Origin: Mytilus trossulus
Lineage: Eukaryota
Assembly (NCBI RefSeq): GCF_036588685.1
Contig: NC_086375.1
Coordinates: 71,734,001-71,798,000 of the forward strand
Direction of reading: 5' to 3'
DNA length: 64,000 bases
The first letter of the stretch is position 1, and the number at the start of each line of letters is the position of its first letter. Both the position numbers and the translations under genes were made by a program. The notes beneath the pieces are model-generated. The model was not told the origin of the DNA and did not search any database. It saw nothing but the letters and a program-made list of their open reading frames with translations. This document shows positions 16,901 to 53,500 of this stretch, piece by piece.

Positions 16901-19900
16901 AAAATGAAAACCCCAGATATTTATATATATTCAACATATAAAAACTGCTACACATTTCGAAGTTCCTGTTGCTATAGTAACACACCATGAAACTTTCTTA
17001 AAATGACATAAAGCTTTATTTCTTCCCTAACACCCTGTATATTTTTCGAAGAACAATTGACACCTACTGTTCTCTACCAAATAAAACAATATATTTTAGT
17101 TGAAAATTGTTTTATATTTTAGAACCAAACGTTCTTTGTCATCAAGTAGTTCTAGCAGTGATGATGAGCTGATATTAAGGGCCAAGAGACGGGAAGAGGA
17201 AGAGAAGAAATTGGAATTAGAAAGACAAAGATTACAGTTAGTTTCACCATTTTTTTTTATTATAAAATCTTTATTTAAAAAAAACATTTAACAGATTAAT
17301 GTGTAATTATCATTAGGATTCATGTTTATGTTTTTACCTAAAATCCTAAATAATTTTATGAATAGGTTACACCTTTAAGTATATATGCAATTTTTTTTCT
17401 GGTTTTCTATCTTAATTATCAGGCTTATATTACTGTTTTATTGTCATGATTGTTCTAGATATCTACTTGAAATGTCATATTTTCTTGTTATCATTTTTAT
17501 CATATGTATGCACCAGTTTTAATGTCAAGTTAAAAGAAATATATATCTGTTCTAGTTGGACCTGTCTCGATGTCTGAGTACATGCAGGTGTTAGTGTGTC
17601 AACCCCTTATTTTCAAGTTTTACTGTATTCTTAATTGTCTAATTAATATATGATGTACATATCTGTTAATTGTTATAGGAAACAAAAAGAACTTGAAGAA
17701 AAACTGATTGAGGAAGAAGTAGCTCGTAGAGTTGAAGAATTGGTCTCTAAAAGGGTAGAAGAAGAGTTAGAAAAACGTAAAGATGAAATCGAGGCTGAGG
17801 TTAAGAGGAGGGTCGAAGAGGCAAAAAGGATCATGGAGGCTCAAATGTTGGAGGAATTGGAACGACAAAGAGAAACAGAAATAGAAAACCAACGAAAGTT
17901 GGAGGTATGGGTAAACCTGATTGGATATATATTTCAGCTGCCATATACCCTGGTTGTGGGGGGAGGGCAGCATTACCTTTAAAACCGCTTAAAACATACA
18001 AAATTTTCTCTAAACTATTTTAAAACAAAAGTTAGAATTATCTTTGGTTAAGTTTGATTAATTTGTAAAGGATATGCTGCAAGCCTTGGTCCTTAAATAT
18101 TTAAAGAAAGAAATGCAGATTTGTTGATTATACGTTTTTCCCTGAAAAATTTTCTAGTGTTTTTTATTTAATATTTGTAAAGTATTAAAGTATGTTAAAT
18201 TTAAGTAACCAGTTCTAACTTTAAAGCTATTCCATTTGAATAATATTTAGAAAAACCTGTATTAGAAGCTTTCTATGCCCATTTCCTCACCAATAGTTGC
18301 ATTTAACAGCTATTGAATATTGCTGCTTTATAGTGCATGACATGGTCTTTCTTCTAAATGTATATGTAATAAGCGTTAAAAGTTATATAACTTGGATAAA
18401 CAATCAATTACATTAAAAACAGGGATAAAATAAGACATACCATTTAGTTAAATGTAACCCTAAAATTTAAGTCAAGATGTTTTTTAATGAACAATTTTAT
18501 TGAAGTTATGTGGTATCCCAACTAATTGACAACCTGTAGAATTTTCATGTTTTGTTATCAAAAAGTAAATATTTTGGGAAATTATTTTCTTCTATTTACA
18601 ACATTTGTAATGCATGACATTTATTTATCAAGATATTTATATTTAGACATCAAATATTTTGTTTATGCCTACTTCATGCCCATACCTTCGATACACATAT
18701 AGGAACCCAAGAGCAATTAATTCTGCACTTTCATGATATATATGAACAAATCTGCATTAAAGTCCATGAACAAATGTTAAGATCTGTGATAATTCTGATG
18801 CCAAGTTTATTGTTTTTATGCAGTTTTAAAAAAAAAAATATATATAAAGTCTGTTTGATAAAACAATTTGTATAAACATCTTTAGAAATAACTCCTGAGT
18901 TGATTTTTTTTAAAGAAATGATAGATATTTTGAACTGCAATATAATTGTTAACTTCCACAATTTCAGTAATTATTTTTATTGATTTATCAGAAATTATTG
19001 CAAAAGAAAGTAAAAAACCTTGTTTTGTGCATTTTTCAGAAGTATTTTTGATTTGCACCTCTGACTTTAGATTTTGTCAGTGGATATGAAATGCACAAAA
19101 CAAGGTATGAGTGGAATAGAGAGATAACAATACAAGTATTTGACATTTCTTGGCATCTGAACACTATAAATAAATCCAAAACAAAACTGCATGAAGATAG
19201 ACATTTGTGTACATGTATCATTTATTTCAGGAAGTTTGTAAAATTATATTACATGAATATGGAACAAAATATTTATATGGAAATCCCATTTTGGAAGTTT
19301 GTTTTAGGTCAAAGCTGTTTGTTTTTACAGAATTCAGGAAAATATTGGATAAAACTATATGCAAGTATTGAAATGTTTTCTTCCATCTTTCACTGTGATG
19401 TGGTTTTTGCTGTACATGTATATCCCTAGGTCCTTTAAATTAAAAACATTTAAACAATACTTATAAACAGACCATAAAATTGAGAAAGGAAATGGTGAAT
19501 ATGTCAATGTATGATTGATAAGTAAATTAAAAGGTCAAAATCTGTTGGCATCAAATTCTGTGAATTACTGCCGTTTTTTCAACAACAAAAATCTGCCAAT
19601 AGTGTTTATAATAAATTTATTTTACTGAATACTTCAAGTTCTTTTATAATTTTGTTTCATAAACACTCTGAGTAGTGTCTGAAATAACTTTTTATTTTAT
19701 TCTGCAATTCCTATATTTATTCAGGCTTCATTTTTTGTAGGATAGAAAAGCATTCTGATCCCCATACATGTACATTTAGTTCTTGGATATCCTTAATGAT
19801 ATACACCCTTTTTAGAGAATCGTGCATTAAACAGTAAAAACCACATGTTACTCCTGTGCAATTAAAATATATAGTATAAATACATATGTTCTTACCAAAG

Positions 19901-29945: not shown

Positions 29946-32900
29946 TTACTTTTCTTCGTCCTTGCTCAGATATCTCAGTAAAGCGTCGTGTTCTGCTTTA
30001 TGACCAGTTTCCTTCTTAATGGTATTGATGATAACTGATGATAAGGGTTCGTCAGATGAATCTACAAATATAAGACATTTCAGAAATAGTTTCTAACTTC
30101 TACGTCAAATGTTCCTTGTTGGAGAATTTTCTCATTAGCAATCAAACCACATCTTCTTATATTTATATTCTTAGACACTTGTTTCTAAATGTATCCCTCC
30201 GTTAGATCACAACAAAAGTTGGATAAAAGATACGTAAACCCTTTTTATCTCTCCTGATACAGAAGACCGACCAAAGTAAACTATATTTATCACTTGGTGT
30301 TCATCGTCCGCAGTCATATGCAACAATCTCCTTTTGGGTCGATCAGAACCCAACACTGCTGTCAACATCAGTAGAGTGTTCAGTTTAAAATGACATCTTT
30401 TTTTTTTTTTTTTTTTACATATTTGTGAATCCTATTCTTGATTACATATTTATAAGTCAAATGGTCAAAATCATCATTCTATTTCGCCCAGTAATAATTG
30501 CACCTTATACCACAAATTTCACCTAATTTCATGTTTTGCAGATAACAAAGTAGAAACACAGAAACCTTGAATAGTAAACAAATAATCGGTAAAATAATGA
30601 AAAATGAAAAAAAAACACTGTACATTAGTTGTGTAATACGAATGAGCCAGAAACTCCGAAATAGCTAGTCAACTTTTTATAGTAGTTTTTTTTCCTTTGA
30701 TCATTGAAGTGTCACCAAATATGTATAATGTTTATAATATTTGTACAATGCAACTAACACGCTTCACAAATGTATGGTAATTTAAAAAATTAAGCCCCCT
30801 TGTTTCATTTGCAATTTAAAACACTAGGAGGAAGCGTAGCGTCATTGTTGTAGCGCTAAAGGACATTGCTCACAACTTTGGGTGCAACAAAATATTCGAA
30901 GCTGGGTAAAAAAAAAGTATTTCTTGACCTTAAATGACGATATTGACCCATTTTTATTGTTTTTTGCAAACTGTGTAGATAATTAGTGCAACACAAGAAG
31001 AAATATAATCAGTAAAATAAGATAAACCAATAAGTCAAAAAGCTATGGTCCGTTGAACTTGAACTATGCTACTTTGAAACGCGGATCTGGCGTAGATAGA
31101 AAATTTGAGTCTATGATGCGTTTATTAAGATAGTTAAGCTCAAATCTAAAACTCTTTAAGCATAAAAAGGTATTTGAAGCAAACCAAAACTAAATTAAAG
31201 CGTGAAGATTTTGAATTTCATTTCTACAAACTACTGGTGTATATGAACGAACACACACTTTATTATATATACTGTGGATTCATGTATTTTTGTGGATATT
31301 TAGTTTCGTTGTTTTGCCAATCTCTGTTAACAAAGCATATAGACTATTTTTAAACATTAGAACTCGTGGTTCACCTGCACCCATTAAAAGTGTTATCCAA
31401 CAAAAAATAATAAATCCACAGTATAGAATTAATATAACTAACAATGGTATATAAATAAAATCAACAGTAGTATACCACTGTACGAAATTTATAAATCTTT
31501 AACTTATTAAAGGGACACTAGCTGTCAAATTCATGTTCACTGATTTTAATCAAATTCTCATATTTTATTTATAATATAGTAAAACATTTATCCAAACTAT
31601 TAAAAGTCTAAATTAAATAATAAACAGGGCACGAACATGAAAATACACAGCTTCGTCTCGTGTTTATTTTAGGCCAGACGCCATCTAATTTATTACCGAC
31701 ACGACCTCTAAAGTCATGCGATGACCATATAAACGATGTAAACATAAATATAGATATTAATAGATTAAGAAAACTCGTGCTGTTGTATTATTCTAGGTCT
31801 ATGTAATTTCATATTATAGATGAAAAATAAATAATTATCATCGATTTTACTTATACATAAAAATGATTTTTTCTGGATCGATTCAACCAATCAAATGATT
31901 TATCTTTGTTTCACTTTCAATGTTGACATTCTTTTCCTTGAGATAACTTTACACATACAACTCACGTGTTTTGAAGTTCACGTGAATACGGATTCAATGA
32001 GGTCGAATTATTTAATTGCGATTGAATAATTCATAATCAATGTTGTTGTTTTTTTATCTTATTTTCACAAAATTGGACCATGCTGGATGCCAAAAAAACT
32101 GGATGCTAAAAAACTAATTATTATTTCAATTTTTGCAATTCCTTATTGATTGAGCAAAATAAAAAGGTATTAGATTTTTTATCCATCTCGTAGCTAGTGC
32201 CTCTTAAAAACTGACCATCATAAACAATGATTCCACATTTTTCTTGATACTCCTCCCTTTTTGAAGCTGTGGTCAGAATACCCCTTAGTTGTTCTGTCAA
32301 GTCCTCTCTCTGGTGCATCATCTGCTCATAACTAAGTCCAGCAATCATTGAGATGTGCATATTGTACAATGTCTTCACAGGTGTTAGATATTCAGCCGCA
32401 AAGTAATAATCTGTATCTCTTGTCTGATAAAATCAAAACAAAATGGTTAAAATTTAACATACAGCATGTTCATCCAATGTTTGCAAATGCAATTAACTTA
32501 GCATTTACTATACCATTATTAAAACATAAAAAACTAAGGTTTATACATCAAGATAATGGTTTTGAAATATATAGTCAATATTTCATGATAATTTTTACAT
32601 TCATAGAAAAATTAAATATATTAGTTCACTGTGTGTATATTTGCATGCAAACAGACCATTTAAACATTTAGAATCAGGAAGTCTCCTCTGAATAACATTC
32701 ATCTTTGCCTCAATCACACTTTCGATTATGTTTGCTATAAATTTCAATATATATCAACAATGATCCTTCCTATATAATGTATATAGAGCCATTTCAGTGA
32801 TCAACCAACGCTCTTTGAAACCTAACCTTTAATATGACCAAATGGCGAAATCATAAAAAGTAAAAAAGAGCTTTTTTTAACAATATATACTAATAATAAC

Positions 32901-35900
32901 TTTATAAAGCACAAATTACACCAATAAGAACGTCAAATAAGGAAACGGGGTATGTATGTAAATGAAACAACTATCCACCAGAATTCAAATGACGAAGATA
33001 AAAACTTATATTTTTTGTGCATGCCATCATATAAGTTCGCTGTCTTTAAAATGGTATAGTTATTAAACTTACACAAATGTGCCAAAGATTACATGGGAAT
33101 ATCCTCTTTGCACCATGCAGATGTTTCTCTACCTTTTCGACTCTCCATGGACCTTTTATTTCTGTATCTACCTCGCTCAAGGTCGGTCTAAACTTGCAAC
33201 TCTTTGGTATGATCTCCCACATCTGTTGTGAGACAACTACATTGCGCCTACTTTTTTCTCTATATTTACGTATTGGATCTTTTGACATGCATTGCATTAC
33301 ACGTTCTCTAAAATCTTGAAATAAAATACCTAGTTTTATATGCAACATCATTTTGAAAGTATGTGTGACCAGACAGATAATAATGCTAACATTTTGATTT
33401 AAAACTGAACCCTTTAATACTTTTGTTTAAAATATTATTTTCTTTCTTTTTTTTTCATATTTAGTACATTGTATTAGTAATTTTGTTGGTATACGTTCAT
33501 CGAGTGAAATAAGTAGACAACTATAAAGGTTTGGTAATTTTACCTGGTAGTACGTGCTTTAAATAATTCACAAAGAATCCCCACGCTAATCCATATGCAA
33601 CATTTCCGACTGGAATTTGGGATTTCATTGACACATCTTTCCCTACAGAAAATAAATAAATAATGTTATAAACGATTAAATAATATGTAATGATGAAAAT
33701 GATCAATTAACCAACTCAATTGCACTGAGATAATTGTTTTCAAGTCGTATATAGTATGTGACATTTGTATCCAAAACCATGCAGAAATGATTTAAAATCA
33801 TAGAAGGTGAATGCAGTGACCTATATATTGGAGGCAACATTATTCAATTAAAACATTGAGTGTATTCACCCTTAAATTGTCAGTCACTGCATTCCGAGAC
33901 TTCTGCTACAATTTACAAATACTAAAATGAAGTTTAGATCATGTGACTTGATTTATGTTTTTTTTAATGAAATGTTGGGATTTTTAATACACCTTCTTAG
34001 GAATGTAGACATTTTGGTTTCAATAACAAAATACCACTGAACTGTTCATAAAAGAAATTTCAAAATTCCACACTAAAAGCATAAAAATCAGTTTATTCGA
34101 GCGAAGGGTGTGTAAAAGAGTTTCCTAAACATTTTTTACTGAAAACCCACCAACGAGAGGTAAATAGTGAGGAAAATCAATTATGATGTTTGGAAACTTT
34201 CATTGACAAAAATTAATTACTTTCGATACAACGTAAACATTTATGAATATTTTGTTTTAATTTTTTTTAACATAACTCACAATACTGCCTATAAAAGAGG
34301 GACAAAAGATACCAAAGGGACAGTCAAACTCATAAATCTAAAACAAACTGACGACGCCATGGCTAAAAATGAAAAAGACAAACAGAAAAACAATAGTAAA
34401 CATGACACAACATAGAAAACTAAAGAATAAACAACACGAACCCCATATAACCTTGGTAGATTTTTGAAAATATTATATGCATGTATTTAAACACAGAAGC
34501 ATGTTAATTTGTGGATTTATGATGTTTATCTTTGTTCTGTAGTTTCATTCTTGGGAGGGTTTGTAGTCTGATATAAAGATCAAACATAAACAACATAAAC
34601 TTTTGAGAAAAAATAAGAAAATATCATATATGGTAGAAACAATTACTTTAGTCAGAAGTATTTTCTTTATCTTTAAACATTTACAAAAACGTTTTATAAA
34701 GATGTGTAACTTGTTAACCTATATAATTTAACACAAGTGACTATGTTGGTGATACTGAAAACAAGCTGTATAAACTGCACAGTAAATTTATTATAGGTGT
34801 GTGCCTTTACTTTTGTTCTTGGTTTTTTTTCCATACAAGTTTTGGTGTTTGCACAAAATAGAAACAAAAGAGCACAATAACAGATCAATGTATCTAAAGT
34901 AAATGAGGTTACATCATACCTTTAGATACTAGTATGTCATACTTGTTTAATACTTACTAAGTATTTACCATTGTTCCCTACATATTTGTACAGTTTAACA
35001 TGTGTATACTAATGGAAACTTACAGCTTAACGCCTATAAACCCATTTAAGGTGCCAAACTTTTACTTTTAAATGAAAATTTAGAAAACCAAATGGTAATT
35101 TATTACACTTTAAATTGTTAAATACAGACTTCAAATGCTACAACTGTTTTATCATATCCCTCTTTTGTAGGTAGCAGATATTACGTTCAAACCGTATTCA
35201 TTGATATATACCTCTCACAGCATCAACAATCATATCCAAGTAATCTTCGTCACGGTCTATACTTATATGCCTAGCCCATCTGATGAATGAGGGAATAGCT
35301 GTGGGTGTGATACCATTCAATACTGGAATTACGTTCAACGAGTTCGTCTCTATGCCAATGCTTAAAATCTCTGCCAAAAACATGCTGATCATATCTCTAT
35401 TTGATGACTCCGTGATGAACAAAATGACCCATCTTGCATCTCGTACACGTCTTTCGATTTCAGACAAAGAATCACCATCTCTCTCGTCTGATGATGCAGG
35501 TCGGGCCTGGGAATACCGGATTTTGTTTTTGTCGAGGTGGTCTTTCACTTTAAAAACTAATTTTGTGTCCTTGGCGTGATATAATAAACACACTTCGTCT
35601 CTGTAATGTTCTGTTTCTTCTGCTTTTTTCACTCCTTCCTGTTTAGAAAAAAAGTAAAGCTTGGATCAACAAAATTTTTGTGGTTTTCTTTTTTCCTCAT
35701 TGCACGGACTTTTTTTCAAAAGTACATACATGTATATTTAAAAAGGTGTTGTTTAATCTTCTATCACAATTATCTCCAATCACTGCCCTTAAGTTCATTG
35801 ACAAGTAATATAATAAGGATAACAATTATATGACAAAACTCCGGAAAAAATTCAGAACAGAATCAAATGGCAAAATTAAGAGTTCAAACACATCAAACGA

Positions 35901-38900
35901 ATGAAAAACAACTGTCATAGTGTAATTTCATGACTTAGTATCGGTATTTGTCTTATGTAACAAATAATGGAATAAACCTAATCTTATAACTAGCTAAACC
36001 TCGCACTAGTATGCAGTTCGCATAGAACTCCATCATATTGACATCAATGTAAAAGCAAAACAAACAGATATATAACGTAAAAATGTCAAATATTGGGAAA
36101 CAAGAGTCAGCATTGTATTTGAATCTTAATAACTATAAAAACAAACAACTATGTCAACAAAGAAAAACATAATGAATGGTATGCAGGCACTTTATCAGTA
36201 AAGCAAATAAGCAAGAATGAAAGACAATGATAAAAAAAACATGGCACGGTTCCTCATCTTTCTGTTTAAAATCATGCTGATCATATATATCTATATTTTG
36301 CACATGTTGTTTCTTTTTTGAAGGAAACTATTTAGGCATATTAATATATTTAACAAATTGAATACAAACTAGATGTTGCCCTCGTTATCGTGTCATCTTA
36401 TTAATCAAAGTATCGACAAACCCTTAGGAAACACATATCTGATAGAAACTAAATGTGCACACACGTTTCATGTACAACTAGTAAATGTAAATATGGAGTC
36501 CTTTTGGTTAAGTAGCTCCTGATTTGAGAAAGTGTGATGTACATATTTGTAGGAAGGTCGGACGAACGAAAAAATTATATAAATATCTGTATAACATACC
36601 GCTGCCTTTTCGAGTTGATTTTTAATAACGTCATGAACGCCCTGTCTTAGTTGGTATGAAATAGTAGCAGATTCTCCTTTTTCTTCGTCTAAAATGGAAA
36701 CAAAACTCTACATGCCGAGAAATTGCCTCCGTTGAATGTTTGCAAACATCCCATAGAGAAAACTGCTCGGATGAACAATGTTGATCATGTGGTACATGAC
36801 AGTGTATTAAGCAACACGTACATCAATTTGTTGAATGCATTCAAGTCTTTAATCTTCCAATAGGAGGTCCACTGGAGTTTTGAAAGAGCATTTCTTTTTA
36901 TCTCTTGACCTAGAACTCATAGACAAGCGTGTTCTTAACAAGTTTACTTTTTTACAAAATTATTATATTTCTTAATCTTTGAATGAATACAGACAATCCT
37001 GAGAACAGCATGCAAAGGTTACTACACTAGGGTGTTTTGACTTTGGAATATCGCATCAACATTATAGTATACACATATTTATAGTAGCAAAGAGTGGAAA
37101 CAAGCTTAAAATAATCGCCCTAGAAACCAAATAGTTCTCAAGGCAAACTTGCTATTGTCTGAAAAAACACTGACTATTTACTAGTTAATAATTTCAGAAT
37201 CTTTTTTCTAGAACAAACATTTCCCGTATTTTTATAAAACACAATCGTTATGTATGTCCAAGAAAATGTTTGCTTCCAGTAAACAGTTTTTAAAAGATTT
37301 TTGAAATATTGAAAGTATTCATCATTTATAAGAAAATAAATAAATACACAGTCAGGTATGATAATCATTTGAAATGTTTCATTGCAGTTGTAATCAACAT
37401 ACAGTTACTTACCATCGTACATCAACATTTTAGTCAATACACCATACTGTTTGTACTTCTCATGATTAAGGATTTCATTTAGGTAATGGTAAAACCTTTG
37501 AACCTCCACATCTCTCTGTGTTTTTGTGAAACTACATAAAATTTCTTCTTTGATTGTCCCAAGTGCACAAAATGCTCCTGGGTATTGGGCAACACAGAAG
37601 TATTCCTAAATAATTCAAAATGAATAATGTTTATTGTAACATAATACGGCATTTTTCCCTTTTTACCCGATAATCTGCTTAATAGTTTGGTTTCTGAAAA
37701 ACCATGGTTTATTATAAAGATTTATATATATGAATCCATTAAAGAGAATCATGACATACTTTGAAATTGCAACTTCATATAGATGGGCGGAGCTTGGACT
37801 ATGATTTATATTTTAATCTGATATTTTTTTTTATGTTAAACCCTGATTTAAACTCCGCCTTTCTTTTACCCCTCCGTGTGATTGATAGTCTAGTGAATGC
37901 ACGAGGACAAGGATTTCGTTTGATTTACAAATAGGATTTCTACTTTCTGGGAATTCCGTCTCCAAACAAACCATTAATTTTCGGAAAGGAAGTGGGTATT
38001 ATTTACACCTGACTGACCTGAGCCAGATTATTTTTGCCAGTGCATTTAATAAATGTAATAAATTGTGTTAGGGAAAATCTTATTTTTATAAGAATTTTTT
38101 TATGACATATCCTATCAGGAATATTTTGTTCTAAAACAATCCTAGGCCCCTACGGATTCGTCGTTTAAATGTTTCACTCGTAAATAGCATGGTATATATA
38201 TAATACATAAAATTCGGAATGAAAATGAGGAATGTGTGAAAGAGACAACAAACCGACCAAAGAGCATAAAACACCCGATGGCAACGAATGGGTCTTCAAT
38301 ACAGCAAATTTGAAAATCTAGCTATATACAACGTGAATGAAATTATATACAAATCACGTTTAACAAATTTACCGCCACAAAAAAAAATGACATTATTACT
38401 CTATCAACATTTTCAAAACCCAAAGTTTAAGTCTTTCGGAATTTTCTCTTGCATATAAATTGTTTCATTTATTTGTTTGTAAAATTTATCAAACCGAGTT
38501 TTTTTTAAAACATAACGACGATTTGATAAAGGAGAATGTTGATTTAATGATTGATATTTACAAAGCGTCCAGCGGTAATTTTTTCAAACATATAACTATA
38601 TAAGCAATCGAAAAATTTCCACAGATTTGGCCATGGTGACGTCCGGGCGATAATTTGAGAAGAAAGGTGATTATGCTCATAGTGATATGAACCTTGTCTT
38701 TTCCGTTGGTTCTACAGAATGTATTAACAGATTTAGACTAGTACACGGTAAAATAAAACTTATCAGGATAAAATATAAAAAAGAATGTGATGACCAAGGA
38801 GACAAATGTCCAAAAGAGACCAAAATGACACAAAAATTAACAACTATAGGTAATCGTAAGGCCTTCAACAATGAGCAAAGCCATAGTCGGCTATAAAAGG

Positions 38901-41587
38901 CCCTGAAATGACAATGTAAAACAATTCAAACGCGAAAACTAACGGGCTTATTTGTGTAAAAAGTTCGTTTGGGTATTCTGTACCACTAGGTTGCTGTCTC
39001 ATTCCCATTTACTACACAACTTCTACTTTTCGTATCGAAAACCATTTTGTGGCATACTAACGTAAAAGCTATGTAGAACATAACATGATACTTACGCTTT
39101 TAATGTGCCCGTTCTTATCCCTTTCTGTAACTTTACACACTTTTGGGCTGTATGGTCTGTGATTTATTATTATTTCAATTTGTCCTACCTCCTCAACGTC
39201 TCGATCATCATCACCAAGTTTACCTGTACTTCTTCCACTATGTGGTAATAACATGAAGAGACAGAGAGGCATATGCCCAGGGTTGTCATTAAACCAGTCA
39301 GACTTTTTTATTCCTTGTGCAAGCTCTAGAAGTACAAGTATTAATGACAATGTACAATATATATACAAAGATCAGCAAACGTTCGTCACGCTGTGTTATT
39401 GTCCCTAGTGGAACGCATTGCGGGGAACACGGATAAACTGTTTGTCCGTCCGTCTTGTCTTGTAAGCTCTCTCATGTGCCTGATGTTCATGAAACTTAAA
39501 ACATAGGTTTTAATCAATGATGTATCTGGCAAACTCGAAAATCAGTACTGACTCACTATTTTTAAAAGAGTTATAATACCCCTTGTAAACATTTACTATA
39601 TACTGTAAACATTTCATTGTTTATAGCGCTCTCATGTCATGAATCGAATTCTTTTCATAGATTTATGAAACTTGTTTCATAAGTCTCGTTTGTACAATTC
39701 TTTTCGAATTTTTATGAAACGTATAACATAGGTTTGTGTCAGCAATGTTTCGGACAAATTCGAAAATCAGTGCTGATCAATACAAGAGTTTACCCTACGC
39801 CATCTTGAAATGTCAAGTATATGGAAAATTGCATTATTAGCGCCATTGTTTAAAGATAGGTATATAGACACACTTTTTTTTTTAATTTCCATTCGTAAGA
39901 TGAATTACAAAAACAGAAAGTGCTGCTTCTATTTAACCTAGTAGAACATTTCTCCGTATGTCAAAAGTTGACTCTCTGGGGTATTTATAGATAACGTGAG
40001 CGGCATAACTAGTCAAATCATGATAAAAATACGTCTCCCTAAAATTGCAAAACGTAGCAGCTAGTCAAAGTTGCTTTAAATAAATATAAGACAGTCAGTA
40101 ATAACTGTTCTTTCCTATATAAAGATATTTAAGTGTTTCTATCAAAAGATTTACGACAAAGGGGATGCTGGTTTGTCCCTTAATATCAATTTATCTTTCT
40201 TGGACGGTGATGTTCGTCTTGGATTCATAGCACCATTAGTTTAATACAATGCATCACCGTCAGTAAGTCAGGGATGTCATTAACATAAGTATTTAAAACA
40301 TAGTTCACTCAATTCTTTTATACATACAATTTGGTTTGGAAGCTGACTGTTACTGTAAACACCTGCCTATCGTTACGGTAATGTTGTTTATAGATCAATT
40401 TAACTCCGAGTCTGTACCCATACGATTAAAGTTGAAACAAAATCTTTAAATGTCGGAGTCTTGTATGATCTTGTATATTGAAGATACGGGGAAAAAATTG
40501 TGCACTAAAATTCTATTTGGTTATACATGCTATGGAAACTCAAACGTGATGAACATTTATTTCTAATAATGATACCTTAAGCTATATATTTATACCTGGG
40601 AGAACAAGCTCAAGGTACCCTGTGAAATGTGACCATGCCATTCCAGCGGCTAAATTACCAGCAGGCAACACAGAGTCAATGGTGACATCAGCTACAAAGG
40701 TTAAAGAGATTCACATATAAAATACGGAAATTAAAATTAATAAAACGAGTACTCCGATTTAATCAATATGGTTTATTGAGAATAAAGATATATATAAGGT
40801 TGTACACTTTAGAAACTATTTTCATTTGGTTTTTCTTTCTTAAAGGTACAAATACTTACAAACAACATCCTTATGAAATCAGGATTAGTTAACTGTACTA
40901 TAAATTGTCTTTGAAAAAAAAGTAATAAGTGACTGGGTTGAAGGAAGTTCAGAGCGCAATCCAATTAACATGTATCTGTTTCCAGTTCATTTCAAATGGC
41001 AGCCTACACTAATTGAACATAATTTTAATATGCGCACGTATACACTTTTGACAAAGTTAAAAAAAATAAAATGTCTTTCATTTGGACATTATTGGGTTGT
41101 TAAATCTAAAGTACTAACCACGAATCATTTCAATAACATTCATGATACATTTCTCATGTAAATTTCTTTCGAGGATCACATGACTGGCCAACTGTAGCAT
41201 GGGTAACTTTGGAATATTCTCTTCACCAAGGCCGTCTTTCAAAAGAATGATTAGTCGGAGCTTATTGGTCTGCAAACTTTTCTCCAATGCTAATAGTGTT
41301 TCCAGCGAAAAAGAGAAATTTTCTATGCTCTCTTTAGAAAGAATTAATAACATTTTCTTACTCGCTGAAATAGCTTGATCAATTGCCTGGTACGTTCTAA
41401 ATCCGGGCATGATGTGTTCCTCTGGAGAAACATAGGCCACTTTATTGTTTTGAAAAATGGTAAAAATGTATTTAGATATTTCGTACTCATCGTCATTGTT
41501 ATACATTACAAAGACATCAGCATTTTCTACGGCTTTCAACCACGGATCTTCATCGTCCTTTACATTAGGGTCTCTACCGGTCGCCAT
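29946..41587 (-). CDS. STING: Tandem TIR-STING-TIR-STING protein (soluble STING/TMEM173 homologue), 722 aa. Coding exons: 41587-41119, 40691-40596, 39325-39096, 37605-37413, 36688-36600, 35638-35212, 33642-33544, 33314-33073, 32423-32216, 30061-29946
   Basis: All nine introns are GT-AG and join in frame (2169 nt, ATG to TAA). Exons 1 and 6 encode TIR folds (DVFVMY...SKKMLLILSKES; EVCLLY...RWVILFITES). Exons 2 and 7 encode the STING dimerisation helix (GNLAAGMAWSHFTGYLELVLP; GNVAYGLAWGFFVNYLKHVLP; cf. human [20 protein letters not shown]). Exons 4 and 9 carry the EYATP-region equivalents (AQYPGAFCAL; AEYLTPVKTL). An acceptor just upstream of the ATG (exon starts 41596) implies a 5'UTR exon. 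Confidence 0.93.
31511..32204. mobile_element. Kolobok-like MITE in TIR-STING intron 9
   Basis: TTAA-AGGGACACTAGCT...AGCTAGTGCCTCT-TAA. Related copies at about 1217-2160 and 26983-27490. Confidence 0.7.
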
Positions 41588-41987
41588 TTTAGGAAACTAA
41601 AACATATAATTAAAAATTATGTTTCTCACATTTTATCATCAAAATATTTTTATTAATCTTCAATTCAAAAACCATACTTTCAAAAAAAACTTTATTTTGT
41701 TAAGCAGTGTGCATACCATACAGTGAAAAAATGTGTAAAGAAAAGGAAAATTACACTTATTTTGTTTATTTAAGAAACAGACAATGTTTCCATTTAGTGT
41801 TTCTTTGTAGATGTATTCTTATTTACTATGGTGTTCAACAAACTTAATTTTAATCAAAGTAAATGTGTTTGAACCGACTTCCAAACAATTGAAGATTCTG
41901 TAAGAAGGAGTGCCTCAATTTTACTCATGAATGCTGAACAACAAATCCGTAAACATGAAATAACACGTTTTGTTTTATTTCTCTGAA

Positions 41988-42569
41988 AGGAGTAGGTCCG
42001 GTAAGGACTCATTTTGGCCTCAAATTTCAGTTTCATCTGAAGAAAGATTTTGACCACTTTTTAAACACTAAAGTGTCTATTTATCTTGATTCAATTAGTT
42101 TTTGTGAAAGTTTTTAAACTAATTTAGTCATTAAAAACGATCCGATTCAAGCTCAAATATGAAAAATCTCTCAAATATGCCAAAAAACGTCACTTTTCGG
42201 GATGGTTTTTGTCAAAAATGAAAGTGGCCGCATCCGTGTTCATCCACAATCTTTATATATGTTATGTATTATCATAAAATACAACTTACATTTCAATATT
42301 AAAGATGAACACGAATGCGGCCACTTTCGTTTTACACGGAAACCGTCTAAAATTCAACTAAAATGATATAATTTTGAAGATTTCGGCAATTTCGCACGAC
42401 TTTATGGTGCTACAACCCGATATATGTGCATTGTATTGTTAAAAAACGACCATATTTATGTAGCAGAAGCATTTAACTGTCCAATAAATAACTAAAAGTT
42501 TATATTTTAACAATTTTGTAAAACTGTTATATTTTGGGGCCAAAAAGGGGTCTTACCGGACCTACTCCT
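41988..42569. mobile_element. MITE upstream of the TIR-STING start codon
   Basis: TIR AGGAGTAGGTCCGGTAAG / CTTACCGGACCTACTCCT with internal inverted AAAGTGGCCGCAT.CGTGTTCATC repeats. Confidence 0.75.
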
Positions 42570-44095: not shown

Positions 44096-45768
44096 TTTAC
44101 ACACTTATCAATCAATTGTTATAAATCAATTCATAGTCGGTGATGTAACATAACCTAAGTAAGAATTGAGTAATAACGAAAATACTCTTCTATAAATTTC
44201 TTCATATATTTTACATGATATATACCACGTTGGACTATACATGTTGGTGGTAATTGAAAAGATGTAAATATAACAGAAATAATTATTTATTCATTTGCGA
44301 AAACATAATCTCATAACTTACTAGATATAATTGCATGTAAACAAATTACTTACTGCGAAATAAAATGGTTTCGTTTCTTCCTGCTATCTATTCAATCTGG
44401 GAAAATCACCAATCAACAAAGTGAAAATAAGGCTTTCTGTGCACCTACTTTCTACTTCGTATTAACACTGTATGTACATTTCATACTAAATATGAAATAG
44501 TAAATAATATAAAAGATATAGTTTTATCAGTTATAATAACAATTAGACAGCAATATAAATAAATTCAAATATAGCTTGTGGAATTTACTGAACTATTTTT
44601 ATCACATATCCTGTGATTTATAAAAATCTATATATAGATAAAGTTTCAAATTATATTAATAAGTTTTAGCACTAAACACGACCACAAAGCTATTATAAAC
44701 AAAAGCAGCTAAATAAAGATTGTAAACAAGTGTTTACTCAATGTTACATTATGTGAAACAATTAAAAACTTATTTGCATTATAGGTACTTTAAAATCTAA
44801 TCCGTTATTTGTTGTTTTATTCTGAATAAATTCAATTATTTCGCTTTTTATCTGTGCAAGTGATTTTAAATAAGTCCCTGATTTTGGATAGGTATTTTAT
44901 AAAATCCAGGAAAAGCACATTTACTTATCTATAATTGATAACCTTCAAAAAAGGTGAAAACAAACGCAAAAAGTATATGATTGAAACAAATACCTACATA
45001 ACCAACCAGGCATGCTGAAAATCCCTAATTTGAAAAATAGATACATTGTAACATATACATGACTACAAAATATACAAACAACTGACAAGTTAAAAATGTA
45101 TATGACATTATAGATTTAAGAAGATGTGGTATGGGTGCCAATGAGAAAACTCTCTCATCCAAGTCACAATTTGTAAAAGTAATTTACCATTATAGATCAT
45201 TATAGATCAAAGTATGTAGTCCTCAACACGGAGTCTTGACTCTGACACACAAAACAACAAGCTATAATTTGCCTCAAAAATTACATGCGTACTGTGAAAC
45301 TATTCAAACGGGAAAACCAACGGTCCAATCTATATAAAAACCGAGACACGAGATACACTTATAAACCACTTCAACAAACGACAATTACTGAACATCAGAT
45401 TCAAGTTACTGATTACGAAAAAGTTCAATTTGGGGTCCTCATCCTAATCCGTGTTTTTAATAGTTTTGTGGATTCAAAAACAAATTACAAGATTTGGAAG
45501 AGATTAAACAAAGCTTTTATGTTCAGTGTTAATTTGCAGGATAAAACAATATTCATACAGTGTAGAAAAATCATTCATGCAACAATTATTGTGAAGAAGG
45601 TGAAAAATTAATTAATTCTTTTTTTTTTCTTTAATAAGTAGTGTTCATTTTCTATCCAATATCATTTTAGTGCGATATGTTAGGGAAAGATGAAGGACTA
45701 AGAAAGGGAACCAATGAAAGCTTGCAAGATACAGCGCTTGTTGTCTCATAAATGGTTTCGATATCACC

Positions 45769-47580: not shown

Positions 47581-50500
47581 ATGACGGATCGACACGTTCT
47601 CCCTGGTCAACACTGGTACGAAGGTGTTTTATTTTTTGGATACAGTCCACCAGACATTCTTGATGCTGTAAAACATTTTGAAGTTCGTGACGACGATGTT
47701 TTTATTGTAACTTATCCAAAAGCAGGTAAGACATTGATTTACAACTTATTTTTATTGCCTTGCATACACACAGTCAATAGTTAAAATACATCTTTTCTAC
47801 TACAAACTATCCTGATATTTCCAGGGTTGTTAACTAATTCTGCCTGAAAATCTTTGTAAGACAAAAACTGCACTCAACTGACGTTGAACATTAAAGCAAC
47901 CACAAGAAAGTTTGAAATTGCCGCTAAATATTATTAAATATAGCATATAAACGCATTTAATAAGACAACATGAATATGAAGTTAGAGCGTTGCTGTTTAC
48001 GAGTGAACCTTAAACCAAGGGTATTAATGTGACACTGGCTATATTGAAAATTAGGTTGAAAATATGGTTTATTAATAACTTTTAATTGACTTTCAACTCA
48101 TGTAAAAGGTTTGGTTGTGGGTACTCTTTATGAGGAAAACAGTTAATCGGAAAGTGTATGAGGCACCGATGACTGCGCATACTCTCATATCGATATCTTT
48201 TGTTTCTGTCTTTGTGTTAGGATTTTGTGTGTGCTTGTTTCGCATCTGATGATTCAAACATTTAATAACTGATTTTTAAATTTATTTTATCATGTTTATG
48301 TTGTGCTGTTGTTACACCATTTTTCATAACATATTTTTGTGTAAACGTCACAAGCTATGAGCCTTTAATTCCGTGATGGTCGTTGGTTGCCGTCTGCATT
48401 AATTCATTACGGGGTCTTTTATCATACGGAGTGGGTCTTACTCATTGCTGAAGGCCGAATGGTGCACTTTGATTGTTTATTTTTTTATCTAATGGATAAT
48501 TGTATCATTGGCAATCACAACACTCTCCTTATTCTTATTTTCCGTTCCCTTAAAGCTTACTGGATAACATCATGATTTAAAATAATTGGCAGCTATGGAA
48601 TATGTCAGAATATACGGCCACTAATAATTCAAATTGGCACAGTCACAATCATATCATGCATTCATCAACTACTGCGTCTTATCACTTACCGGCTGATGTT
48701 TACTTGTCACGAATTGCATATCTTTTAGAAGCACTTGAGATAAACCAAATTTTTGGTGGATTTTCGTAGGTTAGTTTAAGAGTTTTTTTGACTAGTGCCT
48801 ATCTATTTGTGTTTTTTTTTACCGTTAGTGTTATTCCTTGTCCTTTTGCTTATGGTTTTATAAGTTGGTATATTCTTAGCTTGTGTAACGTCTTTCTATA
48901 GCAGTTGTGAAATAGATCCCTTCCGACTTTGGTGAGGTTCGTGTATTCTACTTGTTGTTACTCAGTCTATTGTCTTTTGGTATTTTTTGTTTTGTTTTGC
49001 CATATGAGTTTGAATGTCATTTTGGAATCGTTTTGCTCTCTTTTAAACTGTTTTGATTATTATCGTATTTCAATATTTATTGTTCGTCTGAAAGGTACAA
49101 CATGGATGCAAGAAATAGTATGGTTAATTCTCAGTGATGGGGACTTTGAAAGAGCGTCGAAACAACAGGTTTACTTCCGGTCTCCTTTCTTAGAATTCAA
49201 AGATGATATTTTGAATGAAGTTGGACTAGATTTGGCGAATCCCATGCCATCGCCAAGAGTTATTAAAACGCATCTTCCAGTAAAACTTGCACCTACCCAA
49301 CTATGTCAAAAAGAATGTAAGGTGAGAATATATTAAAATACTCTTTGATAATGAACATTTGCAGAATTAAAAGGACAAATACTATAGCTAACAGTTATCT
49401 ATACTATCTATTGGTTTTCTACACATAGATGTACTAACTTGTTAACACTAAACAGCAAAGTATAACTTAGTGAACCAAAATCATGTTACAAGAGCGTTCG
49501 CATTTGTCGACATAAAATGTGTTTTATGTTTTGTTATTTCTATTTTTTGTCCCATCAGTTATTTGATAAGGACAAATTGAAAGTGTTAACGTTTGTTTAT
49601 TATGATTATTTTTTGTGTATTGTAGCTTTAAAAAATCACAACGAGAAATTTTGGTTATTCAATTCAAAGTATGTAAAGAAAAATTTAGGAATAATAAGAA
49701 CTTAAAAATTTATTGACCCATGCGAATTTCATATAATAGATATTTGCTTGGATTCTAGTAAAAAAGTATGAAAATTTTCATAACAAGTTATATATGTTTT
49801 TCAGGTGGTAGTTATGTTTCGGAATCCAAAAGATCTCTGTGTCTCATACTATCATTTCTACAGATCAAGCTCTTCTTTCGGAAATTTTAAGGGCACATGG
49901 ACCGAATTCGTAGACATGTTTAAAGATGGGCATGGTAAGAGGTTTTCTTTCAATAACTATGTTTTGATGTATCATTGCCAGTATGTTTTTTTAAACAATC
50001 TTAGATGTATACTTTGATGAACCAATCCAAGAGACAAGGTAAGCTGTTTTCAATGCTTTGGTCAAGTATGACAACTCGTGCGATATATAAAAAAAACGCC
50101 TTGCAAAAACCGTTTTAACTAATTCGCAGTATTCATTTGATTATTTGTTGTGTCAACATACTTACTAGATATCATTTTTTTCATACACAACATTTTGTCA
50201 AGATTCAGTTCAAATCCAAAAAATTAAGTGTGAAACATCCTTTTGATTGAGAGTTATGGATTTTTTGTGTATCCATATGCTTATTCATTGTAATCAGTTA
50301 GATGGAGTACAGTGTATTATTTATACATATGCATAAGAAAAAAATGTGAAGACAACACTTTGCAACGTTCATGCGTCTGAAGCGTCTTCATCTGGAACGC
50401 CCAAGCAGCCATATATTTGAAAGCAAAGCCCATATAAGAACTTGAACCGTTGAGGAGCTATATGCTATTACAGGACCTACAATAATTAAAAAGTTGTGAT

Positions 50501-53500
50501 TTAAATAAATCTTTGCTGCAGTCCCAAACACTAACATAATTAAATACGGAACTTGAAATTTGACGGACACTTGAAAATCAATGCTTATATATTTTTTTGT
50601 AGATTTATTGCGGGTAAAAGCGTTAATTATTTTGTATACGAAGCGGTAACTCCTATAAAACGTAAAAGAAGAATCGTGCAGATCATTAAACCAGTCATTT
50701 ACAACTAACTTGTTAAATCGTCGATTCTTCAGTCTGTATGATATTTATAGATGAATTATATTTCTGAAATATGTGCTTTGTCCCTATTATTAATAGATCT
50801 TAATAGCGGTAACGTTTAGCAAGACTTTGAAACCAGAATATCAATTGCAGTAACATTGATTTTCGTTAAGGATAAAGGCTTACTAAGTTCGATCACAGAA
50901 TGTATAGGTTGGTGATATTTGCGAGCTTTTCCCGTAGAAATCAATTTACTTATTTCTAAAATAAACATTAAATAGTAACACAGATTAGAAATTGTCTTTC
51001 ATATTGCCTTCGTAATATTTTCCGTTTAAAACACTGGCTTCAATTGATGAAAAGATGAAATCGAATTAAGTGGACTAAAATCAGAGGAAAATGTTAAGAC
51101 CTGAGTAATGATAAAACTTTAAAGTTAACCAAAGTTAAATGTCTACGTAGAGAAAATGAATAAAGCCAAACAAAAAAACAAGAGTAGTGAAGTGAAAAAT
51201 ATTTGACCAAATCTGAAGAAACAAAACAACGGTCATCACAATTCATTGCATATAGTGTAATATCAAAACTTATTTTTCCCCAATGTGCCAACAGTTACAG
51301 TTTGTAAAACAGCACAAACAATGCAACTCTTCAAACAAACAAACGAATATCAATAACTAGAAGGAATCAGAAACCAACGTGGGTTGAGCCTCAGTCACAT
51401 TAGACTACGCTCACCGAGATCTAAAATCATGAAATTCAGATCATCGTCAGGTCGCGGTATGAGCGTTATACAAATGTAGAATTTCGTTGTTTTCACGATG
51501 CTACTACGTCCTCAAAACGCTGCTACAACGATCCCGCTACGATTGTATCACGTTCTCACCACACTTATTCTGCGACCTCACTACGATTATCACGATCGTA
51601 CTACGATCATTACGTTCTCACTACGACCATACTACGATTTATCCAATTGCAATATTATCTTACCACGCTTCTACTGCGTCTATGGCACGCTCTTACCACA
51701 GCATACTACGATCGTACCACGTTCATACAGCGATCTTACTTCGCTCTCAGCAGTAAAGTCAGATTCGTGTTCCATATAAATACTCCTTCGAATTTCTCAT
51801 TTATTCGTAGATCTCTAAGAAACAGCCATGACACCAAATTTAAATCTACCAGAACTCGTGGGCGCGGTAGGAGGGGGTATAGGTAGGGACAGAGGCAGAG
51901 GGGTCTCTGAAACTAACCCTGATCCAGTAGAAATGTCATATTGAACAATCCAAACTTAATCACAACATATTGCGGGTGCATCAAGATCATTGTAGTAAAA
52001 GGATCCAGTTTAAGGTGGGCATCTAATAGCAAATTGTTTGCCATATAATGCACTATATGCATGTGGAACGTTCCATGTCTTCTGAATTTCGTCTGCAATC
52101 GCCCTCCAATCATTTCAATCATGAACTCACTCCATCTCTATGACCTCGTCTTTGAGATTTTTTTTATCTGTGTTAATGATTGTAGAATCATTTCTATATG
52201 TACATGGGCTTGTGTTTCTTTGTTTCATTTTAAATTTGATGTTTCAAACAAAACCTGGAGAACTTTTATATATTTATGTGACAATTCCAGTGAGTATGAC
52301 TAGAACTCGAAAAAGTCGTAGTATTTACGTAGTCCTGTCGAAAGAAGAGCGTGATGAGAACGGCATGAGCATGCAAGAATTGTTTCATGGTCTTCAACAA
52401 CATGGTACAAAATGTATAAACGTGGTATAGAGGTTATATATAGAAGCATGGTTGGGTCGCGGTGAGAACGTCATGGTCGTATAGTGAGGTCGTTGTTACG
52501 TCGCTGTCAGATCGTAGCGCAGTCTCTCTGACTAGAATCCCGCTTTCGCTACGATCTCGCTACTACAGTATGGTATAGCGACCTTTGTGCTCTAACAACG
52601 ACTTTACTGCGCTCTCTCTATGCTCCTTCTACGACCTGATTTGTCCACGACCACACCACATGTTCAAAGTTTGTCACGCTCATCAAGATCATGATTACCT
52701 TTCACATAAAATATCGTGACGGATCAGCAATACGTTGTGATTCAGATTGGATTGGTTGAGTCGACACCTCTACTGGGTCGGGATTCGTATCAGAGGCCCT
52801 CTGATCCATCTTCTACACCTCCCACCACGCCTACCAGTTCTGGTAGATGTTGGTGGCATGACCGTGTTGTTTTCAAGAATTCTACGTATGAATGACAATT
52901 AGAAGGAATGGAACAGTATTTATATGGAACATGATGTTGACGTATTTGCTGAGCGTGTAGTAACATCGCGGTATGAACGTGGTAAGAGCGTGCTATTATT
53001 ACAGAAGAAGCGTCGGATGTTCGTGTTGCAATCGGAAAAATCGTGGTATGGTCGTAGTGAGGACGTGATGAGCGTAGTAAGATCGTAATAATCGTAGTGA
53101 ATTCACAGAACGTGGTATAATCGTAGCGGCTTCGTTGTAGCAGCGTATTGAGGACGTAGTAGCAACGTGAAAATATGCGGGTATGCTCAAGTATTAGGTG
53201 AGGAACAGATCGAATTGATAGAACTGCATAAAAGTAATGAAGGTGCAAGCACGCTTTAAATGAAGCAGCCATTGCTTTATCTAAATGTGCACTATATGTT
53301 TTTGGTAAATATATGTTAAAAATAATAATTGCTTTGATCTTGGATATTAACTCTATAGAAGTGAATTTCCTCAAGCATGGACAACAGTTTTCTGAGAAAC
53401 TCAAACAGTTAAAATAGGTTCTTGTATAAAACAACAAGAAACAAATACAACAAAGTAAAAAACGATAAATATTCGAGCACATATGAACAATGTTTGGTTG

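Follow-up and report, generated by a model that had tools for sequence, protein, structure and literature searches.

A doubled TIR-STING gene in Mytilus trossulus points to one ancient duplication shared by bivalves, with two halves diverged in opposite ways

The Mytilus trossulus gene LOC134712311 (RefSeq), on the minus strand of the window analyzed here (a stretch of 64,000 nucleotides of contig NC_086375.1), encodes one protein of 722 amino acids in ten coding exons, with the domain order TIR-STING-TIR-STING. On balance, we favor the interpretation that this chain goes back to an animal TIR-STING gene duplicated in tandem once, in an early bivalve, and that its two STING domains, predicted to pair within the chain, form one asymmetric pocket for a cyclic dinucleotide, through which the single TIR with a retained catalytic Glu would be activated. 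What is new here is the single pan-bivalve origin of the doubling and the asymmetric divergence of the two halves; the animal origin and the architecture have already been published.

The open reading frame has a single stop codon, and all nine introns have GT-AG ends. Exons 1-5 measure 469, 96, 230, 193 and 89 nt and exons 6-10 427, 99, 242, 208 and 116 nt, with intron phases 1, 1, 0, 1, (0), 1, 1, 0 and 1. An earlier note on this DNA had listed the ten exon sizes and the intron phases within each half, all of which were borne out when re-measured (Table 1). The transcript evidence comes from four of 24 listed runs, which were guessed to be RNA, none being on record as such; transcription is inferred because the joints are spliced, not because of the run label. 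Seven of the nine joints, including that between exons 5 and 6, were spliced in contigs of transcript type from all four runs and the other two in those from three, and one contig of 2090 nt spans exon 1 through exon 6. The fused joint between exons 5 and 6 rules out that the gene is an artefact of annotation in which two genes were joined. When left unspliced, exon 5 reads through to a stop codon, and a short isoform produced in this way is possible. A longer form of the 5' exon, with a donor after 44322 and an ATG at 44336, both read in the sequence, would yield the 730-aa RefSeq isoform P0001 (phase 0).

Table 1. Exons of LOC134712311 and the parts of the protein assigned to them; positions are those of the window.
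Feature	Position	Strand	Evidence and remarks
5' untranslated exon (part seen)	45188..45339	-	Contig of run X2, joint 44485/45188, CT..AC ends
5' untranslated exon	44354..44485	-	Joint to 41596 in X2; in X1, X3 and X7 with 9 unmatched letters
Exon 1: TIR1, catalytic-position Glu E96 kept	41119..41596, ATG at 41587	-	Pfam TIR_2 (2e-8) and TIR; alignment column; splice sites
Exon 2: STING1 dimerization helix, S177/H178/G181/Y182 = human 162/163/166/167	40596..40691	-	Phase-1 intron after Pro; Pfam; alignment
Exon 3: STING1 core and lid, R245/Y247 = human R238/Y240	39096..39325	-	Joints, alignment; followed by phase-0 intron; no Pfam match by itself
Exon 4: STING1 pocket floor, Q272/G275/A276 replace human E260/T263/P264	37413..37605	-	Pfam, alignment
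Exon 5: last STING1 helix and linker	36600..36688	-	Joint 35637/36599 in 4/4 runs; phase-0 donor where a single unit would end
Exon 6: TIR2, F446 in catalytic column, Glu three residues further (E449)	35212..35638	-	Pfam TIR_2 (5e-5); alignment
Exon 7: STING2 dimerization helix, G523/N527/Y528 = human 162/166/167	33544..33642	-	Pfam, alignment
Exon 8: STING2 core and lid, R605/F607	33073..33314	-	Pfam, alignment
Exon 9: STING2 pocket floor, E626/T629/P630 retained	32216..32423	-	Pfam STING_LBD (1e-7); alignment
Exon 10, coding part: last helix and stop	29946..30061	-	Joints; 3' UTR reaches at least 29500

The two halves of the protein agree in 77 of 333 columns (23%), and their local alignment score of 145 compares with 55 for the best of 300 shuffles; the four internal introns of each half lie at corresponding places. 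Taken singly, only the exon pairs 1/6 and 2/7 were significant in the shuffle test; for the pairs 3/8, 4/9 and 5/10, respectively 29, 157 and 43 of the 300 shuffles scored as high. Exons 4 and 9 map to the same part of the Pfam profile STING_LBD. The similarity of the halves, the parallel introns and the spliced joint uphold the previous proposal that a whole five-exon TIR-STING unit was duplicated in tandem and fused. The fusion may have come about when the former last exon gained a donor that splices to the acceptor preceding the second TIR.

Every STING gene found in the M. trossulus genome is doubled, and the named carriers of the doubled protein belong to Mytilus, Saccostrea, Crassostrea, Pinctada, Ylistrum, Mya, Mactra and Dreissena. 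A tree of the halves placed 39 of 41 first halves in a single group (0.986) and did the same for 39 of 40 second halves (0.987). With bacteria added, the first halves were grouped at 98/95 and the second halves weakly, at 46/0, and a sister relation of first and second halves was neither recovered nor rejected (p-AU 0.11). The distances among the first halves of 34 proteins agree with those among their second halves (Spearman 0.55, 0 of 2000 permutations), and the likeness between the halves of one protein is 20%, versus 31% for first halves and 27% for second halves of different proteins. Judged from these comparisons, we regard the doubling as a single ancient event common to mussels, oysters, scallops and clams; a recent duplication specific to this locus was rejected because the doubling is pan-bivalve and old. 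A scallop protein (P0043) contains four units. The halves of P0064 (Lingula) and P0096 fall outside both half groups, and both proteins were left out of the residue counts given below. Two paralogous gene models each failed at one junction, one gene being omitted from the trees and one first half dropped, and a search for shorter homologs recovered just nine fragments.

The STING_LBD profile (PF15009) matches two stretches of the protein with 156 bits, at a cut-off of 27. The ligand contacts that are universal in STING, which are the aromatic residues at positions 167 and 240 and Arg238 (PMC9980059), are present in both halves as Y182/R245/Y247 and Y528/R605/F607. Other positions differ between the 39 first and 39 second halves that were compared, in counts that tally related sequences and not independent events: S162 was seen in 35 first versus 4 second halves, H163 in 34 versus 0, N166 in 1 versus 38, T263 in 1 versus 18 and P264 in 0 versus 36. 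Kept in both are R238 (37 first and 32 second halves), G158 (32 and 37) and W161 (26 and 35). Positions 162 and 263 determine the linkage specificity in solved STINGs (PMC9980059), and most bacterial STINGs have the Gly162/Asn166 of the second halves as well. Across the bivalves, the two halves carry different pocket residues that are nearly fixed, and they have diverged in opposite directions; in STING1 of LOC134712311, the loss of E260, T263 and P264 could reflect decay rather than specialization.

In the TIR domains, TIR1 of LOC134712311 carries the helix-C Glu of NADase TIRs (E96), whereas TIR2 has a Phe there (F446). Across the alignment, 28 of 31 TIR1 domains retain a Glu in the catalytic column, at an overall identity of about 25%, as do 17 of 20 single TIR-STINGs; among 48 TIR2 domains it does not belong to the four commonest residues in this column, and no Glu is conserved. 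The BB-loop Pro-Gly of TIR domains is used in adaptor binding, and its Gly is found in 29 of the 31 TIR1 domains. Some TIRs that retain the catalytic Glu have tested inactive (10.64898/2026.04.20.719644).

Structure prediction with AlphaFold2 from a 59-row alignment gave a pLDDT of 85 and a pTM of 0.81 over all four domains, with low confidence for the linker 361-366; the single-sequence fold had a pLDDT of 35. STING2, aligned alone to human STING, has a Z of 23 and an rmsd of 1.9 over 178 residues. The confident single-chain model fits a STING1:STING2 pseudo-dimer, bearing in mind that pTM carries no contact information and that AlphaFold would pack two STING-like domains after solved dimers regardless. 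A complex prediction with two copies of STING1 and one of STING2, run without alignments and with an uncertain partner fold, scored 0.00 and favors neither pairing. STING binds its ligand solely as a dimer (PMC9980059), and in the mechanism that we propose STING1 and STING2 would pair within one chain to form a single asymmetric pocket. The ligand would come from a host cGAS-like enzyme and is probably asymmetric, such as 2'3'-cGAMP or 2'3'-cUA. Its binding would close the pocket and lead to lateral stacking of the receptors, whereupon TIR1 may cleave NAD+ or make cADPR, with TIR2 as a putative non-catalytic partner.

We also considered the possibility that like halves pair between molecules (STING1:STING1 and STING2:STING2), yielding a two-ligand receptor in which the covalent link pre-builds a STING filament. 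Such an arrangement would agree with the Gly and Trp of the dimer helix and the R238 retained in both halves, with the need for lateral stacking of dimers in STING signaling (PMC9402430), with the different ligands read by each STING in animals that have several (PMC9980059) and with the four-unit scallop protein. We nevertheless think it unlikely, since the first halves are nearly devoid of T263 and P264 and the second halves of S162 and G166, reciprocal losses that are expected of a fixed hetero-pair, and the model of the single chain has high overall confidence. It is also rather improbable that the ligand is read by an in-chain pair as proposed above, while both TIRs merely scaffold MyD88-like adaptors in signaling to NF-kB or IRF and have no enzyme output. 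In favor of this, the TIRs belong to the animal TIR_2/TIR type and cluster with those of hosts, the BB-loop Pro-Gly is kept in TIR1 and the role of the TIR in the oyster TIR-STING has been called unclear (PMC10732462), but the catalytic-column Glu is so widely kept in TIR1 and lost from TIR2, many animal non-TLR TIRs are active and NAD+ depletion has been suggested for the oyster protein.

With regard to the origin of the gene, separate TIR and STING trees that included bacterial TIR-STINGs placed neither domain among the bacteria; 8 bacterial STING rows and 11 bacterial TIR rows (22 loci fetched) form a side of their own (99/98 and 100), the bacterial rows of the TIR tree being of the Cap12 type only, with no bacterial TIR_2. 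The earlier note had argued against recent horizontal transfer, and the trees sustain this: because neither domain lies among bacterial TIR-STINGs, such a transfer is very unlikely, and convergence on the bacterial architecture by domain shuffling appears to be the best reading. An animal origin of both domains and convergence have been published for the oyster TIR-STING, also from trees (PMC10732462). The LOC134712311 protein has no match to the CAP12-type TIR (PF10137) or prok_STING (PF20300) at E<=0.01 and none in PADLOC. Among 59 relatives, the CAP12-type TIR matched 9 weakly (best 2e-4) versus 54 for TIR_2, and prok_STING 6 weakly versus 59 for STING_LBD. A transfer of recent date is refuted by these matches together with the trees and the introns shared with a vertebrate-type gene, and its domain order, that of the bacterial CBASS effector, lends it hardly any credence, any more than the stop downstream of exon 5 does to two genes joined by annotation. 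An ancient bacterial transfer, with TIR-STING as the older animal form, TM-STING as derived and the likeness inherited rather than convergent, seems highly improbable to us, but finds some room in the trees. Their root was left unfixed, TM-STINGs stand opposite all TIR-STINGs plus bacteria (support 88), and AU tests, run after removal of four long rows from the STING set and one from the TIR set, did not reject a grouping of second halves with bacteria (p-AU 0.47) or of STING-fused TIRs with bacteria, apart from host TIRs (p-AU 0.42); to this may be added the Gly162/Asn166 of second halves. The published trees and the different TIR type speak against it, as does the identity of TIR1, which is 9% to bacterial versus 20% to host TIRs. 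The TIRs considered here group with the latter, many of which lie in long TLR-like frames. Furthermore, the named TIR-STINGs in the dataset are all lophotrochozoan, whereas TM-STING spans corals, oysters and vertebrates.

As to how the domains were joined, the idea of a TIR exon shuffled onto an animal STING holds for the animal origin by domain shuffling and fails for the single-exon mode. Each TIR is a single exon in LOC134712311 and one paralog, but not generally: TIR1 carries an extra phase-0 intron in all three paralogs modeled at C3:45 Mb, and L075, the TIR-STING locus of another animal, has a multi-exon TIR. These loci rule out the TIR as universally a single exon, and a one-exon TIR shuffle is therefore not established.

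Vertebrate STING1 had been said to have its introns at the same positions, and this was confirmed for two of them, after P173 and before the E260 equivalent, by way of the vertebrate-type locus L071 and arithmetic on human isoforms. The phase-1 intron after P173 is present in all 12 mussel halves modeled and in L071 (human isoforms: 231-25=206=379-173). The phase-0 intron before the E260 equivalent is likewise found in 12 of 12 mussel halves, six residues before it in 8 and 4-10 in the rest (six in repeat 1 of LOC134712311, as previously stated, and 10 in repeat 2), with a matching donor in L071 and 283-30=253 in human, which places it before A254. The third human STING1 intron we take to be in phase 1 at codon 316. 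Like LOC134712311, the invertebrate loci L069 and L072 have a phase-1 intron at the corresponding place, and L071 ends before it. A literature search gave no source for the third human intron, and no exon boundaries were found in PMC4117786 and PMC5215812. The intron at the TIR-STING junction, in phase 1 and 12-13 codons before N154, is distinct from its vertebrate counterpart, which is in phase 0 and 16 codons before. The STING introns are not pan-animal, because 19 coral-type TM-STING loci are without all three. Shared introns point to common ancestry and give no direction of change.

The best match in both sequence and fold is the TIR-STING of Crassostrea gigas (PDB 6WT6/6WT7; E 2e-26 and 1e-18), which also combines an N-terminal animal TIR with an animal STING ligand domain and has no membrane part. 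It consists of one unit and forms a symmetric homodimer (PMC9402430), whereas the two units of LOC134712311 show about 23% identity, have changed reciprocally in the pocket and include a single TIR that retains the catalytic Glu. The Mytilus "stimulator of interferon protein 2" (AJQ21543.1) is an orthologue (P0001 cluster). A two-TIR/two-STING class of oyster STING with the same architecture is already listed as a domain set in the accessible part of PMC11103948, and the portions of the literature on this class that were available offered neither an intron map nor any mention of a single origin, an asymmetry or a mechanism. Vertebrate TM-STING (STING1/TMEM173) shares the ligand-domain fold (Z 23), R238, the aromatic residues 167 and 240 and the introns after P173 and before A254, but is a homodimer with a TBK1-binding tail and a transmembrane N-terminus where LOC134712311 has a TIR, and its upstream intron has another place and phase. 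The bacterial CBASS TIR-STING (Cap12) resembles the mussel protein in the order of TIR and STING, in the Gly162/Asn166 of the second halves and, by analogy, probably in a logic that leads from ligand through stacking to NADase activity. It differs in its Pfam families, identity (9-18%), side of the trees, absence of introns and single unit.

The LOC134712311 protein has no STING_TM match, its TIR occupying the N-terminal place. The STING_TM profile gave no match in the M. trossulus genome, nor did it in the controls, and a query with oyster-type TM-STING matched the doubled genes only, plus one weak stray (E 0.43). As a joint reading, which we put forward tentatively, one ancient duplication may have given the bivalves a single-chain STING pseudo-dimer, in which one half resembles animal STINGs (Ser162/Gly166) and the other has come to match the bacterial pocket by convergence (Gly162/Asn166). 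Such a receptor would offer an asymmetric site to a second messenger that is itself asymmetric, and would couple it to a TIR pair of which one member is active and the other dead. The doubled form may have displaced membrane STING altogether in Mytilus, and tandem STING would have arisen independently in brachiopods, annelids and nemerteans.

The intron match independently backs the convergence of animal and bacterial TIR-STINGs that has already been published, and so adds weight rather than news. In the accessible literature, STING receptors described so far are symmetric homodimers that read an asymmetric ligand through two identical half-sites. Once fused, the halves of a pair are free to specialize, and the alignment suggests that specialization has happened and has been kept across the bivalves. 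If this is true, the protein would offer a natural system, soluble and made of one chain, in which to test how the linkage and base of a ligand are recognized and whether NAD+ cleavage is the means by which animal TIR-STING signals. It would also be relevant to the antiviral immunity of farmed shellfish, in which cGAS-like enzymes are greatly expanded.

All ten exons of the minus-strand TIR-STING-TIR-STING gene have exactly the sizes reported in the earlier note, and the intron phases 1,1,0,1,(0),1,1,0,1 were confirmed. Its nine introns all have GT-AG ends, and the joined exons form an open reading frame of 722 aa with Pfam matches to TIR_2 in exons 1 and 6 and to STING_LBD in exons 2, 4, 7, 8 and 9. 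The two five-exon halves are indeed parallel, with 23% identity between them and a whole-half likeness far above that of shuffled sequences, and when exons were taken singly only the pairs 1/6 and 2/7 were significant. Splice joints were read from four of the 24 runs listed (four studies), whose RNA nature was guessed: their contigs contain seven of the joints in all four runs and two in three of them. The exon 5-6 joint was present in all four, a single contig spans exon 1 through exon 6, and contig joints also place two 5' exons. The locus is RefSeq Mytilus trossulus LOC134712311 (exon 1 identity 100%), whose cluster includes a 722-aa isoform X3; the database entry for its M. galloprovincialis orthologue bears the name "stimulator of interferon protein 2". 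With the exon 5 donor left unused, the frame would continue for about 43 codons to a stop and yield a one-unit TIR-STING, a form not seen among the contigs listed.

Features in and around the gene (window coordinates)
Feature	Position	Strand	Basis or remark
ARGLU1 gene exon	17647-17916	+	Pfam ARGLU 2e-17
Intronic stretches	31236-31669, 34274-34707, 38614-39047, 41652-42500		matched by very many contigs, hence high-copy repeats
Exon 7	33544-33642	-	residues 162 and 166
Possible read-through past exon 5	36471-36599	-	frame to stop
5' exon	44354-44485	-	contig joints
5' exon	45188-45339	-	contig joints
Sulfotransferase gene exons	48911-55044	+	Pfam Sulfotransfer_1; head to head with the STING gene

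The earlier note had also suggested that the STING introns share positions and phases with human STING1, and two of the three are supported, with human residue numbering taken from PDB alignments. Of the 231 residues of STING-beta, intron 5 supplies 25 (PMC5934658), so human exon 6 starts at codon 174; the isoform that skips exon 7 is 283 residues long (PMC12213456), 30 of them unique, so exon 7 starts at 254, six residues before E260. Both donors are directly visible in a vertebrate-type genomic locus with mammalian best PDB matches (L071): one follows Pro in phase 1, and the other ends the following exon in phase 0. A rough simulation that ignores proto-splice bias gives about 2e-4 as the probability that both positions coincide by chance. 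The third human intron may lie at the corresponding position; our literature search found no source for it. Skipping of human exon 7 yields a new tail, and skipping of mussel exon 4 or 9 would likewise shift the frame.

The intron survey covered 38 loci, three of them incomplete because the sequence ends early. Half (19) are coral-type TM-STING loci, related paralogs rather than independent events, that are uninterrupted across the first two intron sites; in two that were read along their whole length the third is missing as well, and the best PDB match of L050, from Stylophora, agrees with the coral type. These nearly intronless genes (L044-L047, L049-L063) mostly carry a different, lone phase-0 intron late in the ligand domain, and possibly reflect a retrocopy-derived expansion or wholesale intron loss. 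Five further loci without any interruption may be transcripts, and L067 lacks the first two introns. Among other invertebrate loci, six of the TIR-STING type retain the first intron, L072 has the first three, and L068-L070 lack the first and retain the second, a distribution indicating a shared intron set that goes back at least to bilaterians and is labile in part. The intron at the TIR-STING junction lies 12-13 codons before N154 in phase 1 and is found again in other invertebrate TIR-STING loci, whereas vertebrate-type STING has a phase-0 intron there, 16 codons before N154. That each TIR is a single exon held for this gene and one paralog, but not for TIR1 of the three modelled 45-Mb paralogs (two exons each); the TIR of L075 has at least three exons.

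A homolog search over 50%-identity representatives gave 217 matches, and many full tandem proteins are among the 150 listed. Seven of ten relatives looked up carry names (Saccostrea, Ylistrum, Crassostrea, Pinctada, Mya, Mactra and Dreissena), the Ylistrum protein having 1422 aa and four units. A tree of 155 domains shows two groups that branch in matching fashion, one holding 39 of 41 first halves and the other 39 of 40 second halves, and the duplication is thus older than the pteriomorph/clam split, which dates to the early Palaeozoic. Judged from these proteins, the duplication is old and general, with a probable single pan-bivalve origin. In P0043 (Ylistrum balloti), units 1 and 3 belong with the first halves and units 2 and 4 with the second, which points either to a further doubling of the doubled gene or to an annotation that merged two neighbours. 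Tandem STINGs of Lingula (P0064), Capitella (P0125), Lineus (P0147) and Paramuricea (P0110, a partial entry that may be an artefact), as well as P0079, P0076 and P0183, fall outside both groups and are apparently independent duplications; the partner regions of about 150-250 residues in P0079, P0076 and P0147 gave no match to the TIR profile.

The M. trossulus genome contains at least seven STING genes (the window gene, C3:83.40, four at C3:45.10-45.28 and C14:38.49), which account for all 11 genome matches to exon 2. Each carries two STING units, six as modelled and the seventh from matches only, and the between-unit junction is phase 0 in all six models. Every STING gene found was doubled, and no transmembrane STING was found in these searches, whose counts are lower bounds; the oyster does have one (PDB 8YDN). 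Inside the TIR-STING cluster on C3, the opposite strand carries two long single-frame TIR reading frames (C3:45205921 and C3:45217302, +), whose lengths of 640 and 610 aa are TLR-like.

The two halves have, on the alignment, diverged in opposite directions. Among 39 first halves, S162 is retained in 35, G166 is retained in 35 and H163 was gained in 34, while T263 (present in 1) and P264 (in 0) were lost. Second halves have Gly or Ala in place of S162 in 31 cases, gained N166 in 38 and retain P264 in 36; both sets of halves retain R238 and, in the dimer helix, the Gly and Trp. Linkage preference in solved STINGs is set by positions 162 and 263 (PMC9980059). The catalytic-column Glu is retained in 28 of 31 TIR1 domains, and none is conserved among 48 TIR2 domains, that of the window gene having a Glu three residues further on.

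STING_LBD matched all 59 aligned relatives and prok_STING 6, and TIR_2 matched 54 and the TIR of bacterial Cap12 9. From 707 genome searches, 22 bacterial STING loci were fetched, and the 8 and 11 used in separate STING and TIR trees lay on their own side in both (99/98 and 100). Bacterial identity to the mussel protein is 9-18%, compared with means of 25-27% for animal TM-STING and 14-20% for host TIRs. Recent horizontal transfer from bacteria is excluded. These trees do not fix the root, and a topology joining the TIR-STINGs or the second halves to bacteria was not rejected. Bacterial STINGs share Gly162 (6 of 8) and Asn166 (7 of 8) with the second halves; this pair, encoded in exon 7, represents convergence or retention and may draw second halves toward bacteria in trees. 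The direction of evolution is instead taken from the distribution and from PMC10732462, the available part of which already concludes convergent domain shuffling for the oyster TIR-STING and does not contain the word intron. The interpretation in the earlier note is mostly right, and largely known already. A class with two TIR and two STING domains is listed in PMC11103948. In the literature outside subscription journals, where surveys of bivalve TIR and STING have appeared, no publication was found that describes the intron map, a single pan-bivalve origin or an asymmetric pseudo-dimer.

A structure model from 59 rows was confident as a whole (pLDDT 85, pTM 0.81), with a flexible linker at 361-366 and best matches to oyster TIR-STING and animal STINGs. 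It would fit a STING1:STING2 pocket within one chain; pairing of STING domains between molecules instead seems unlikely. A purely scaffolding role for the TIRs is more doubtful still. Many animal TIRs are active, some Glu-bearing ones are inactive, and the oyster TIR-STING is suggested to deplete NAD+ (10.64898/2026.04.20.719644). In bacterial TIR-STING a partner TIR completes the active site (PMC9402430). We consider it reasonably probable that the predicted intramolecular pocket would bind an asymmetric host-made cyclic dinucleotide, that closure would be followed by stacking, by analogy with bacterial TIR-STING, and that TIR1 would then cleave NAD+.
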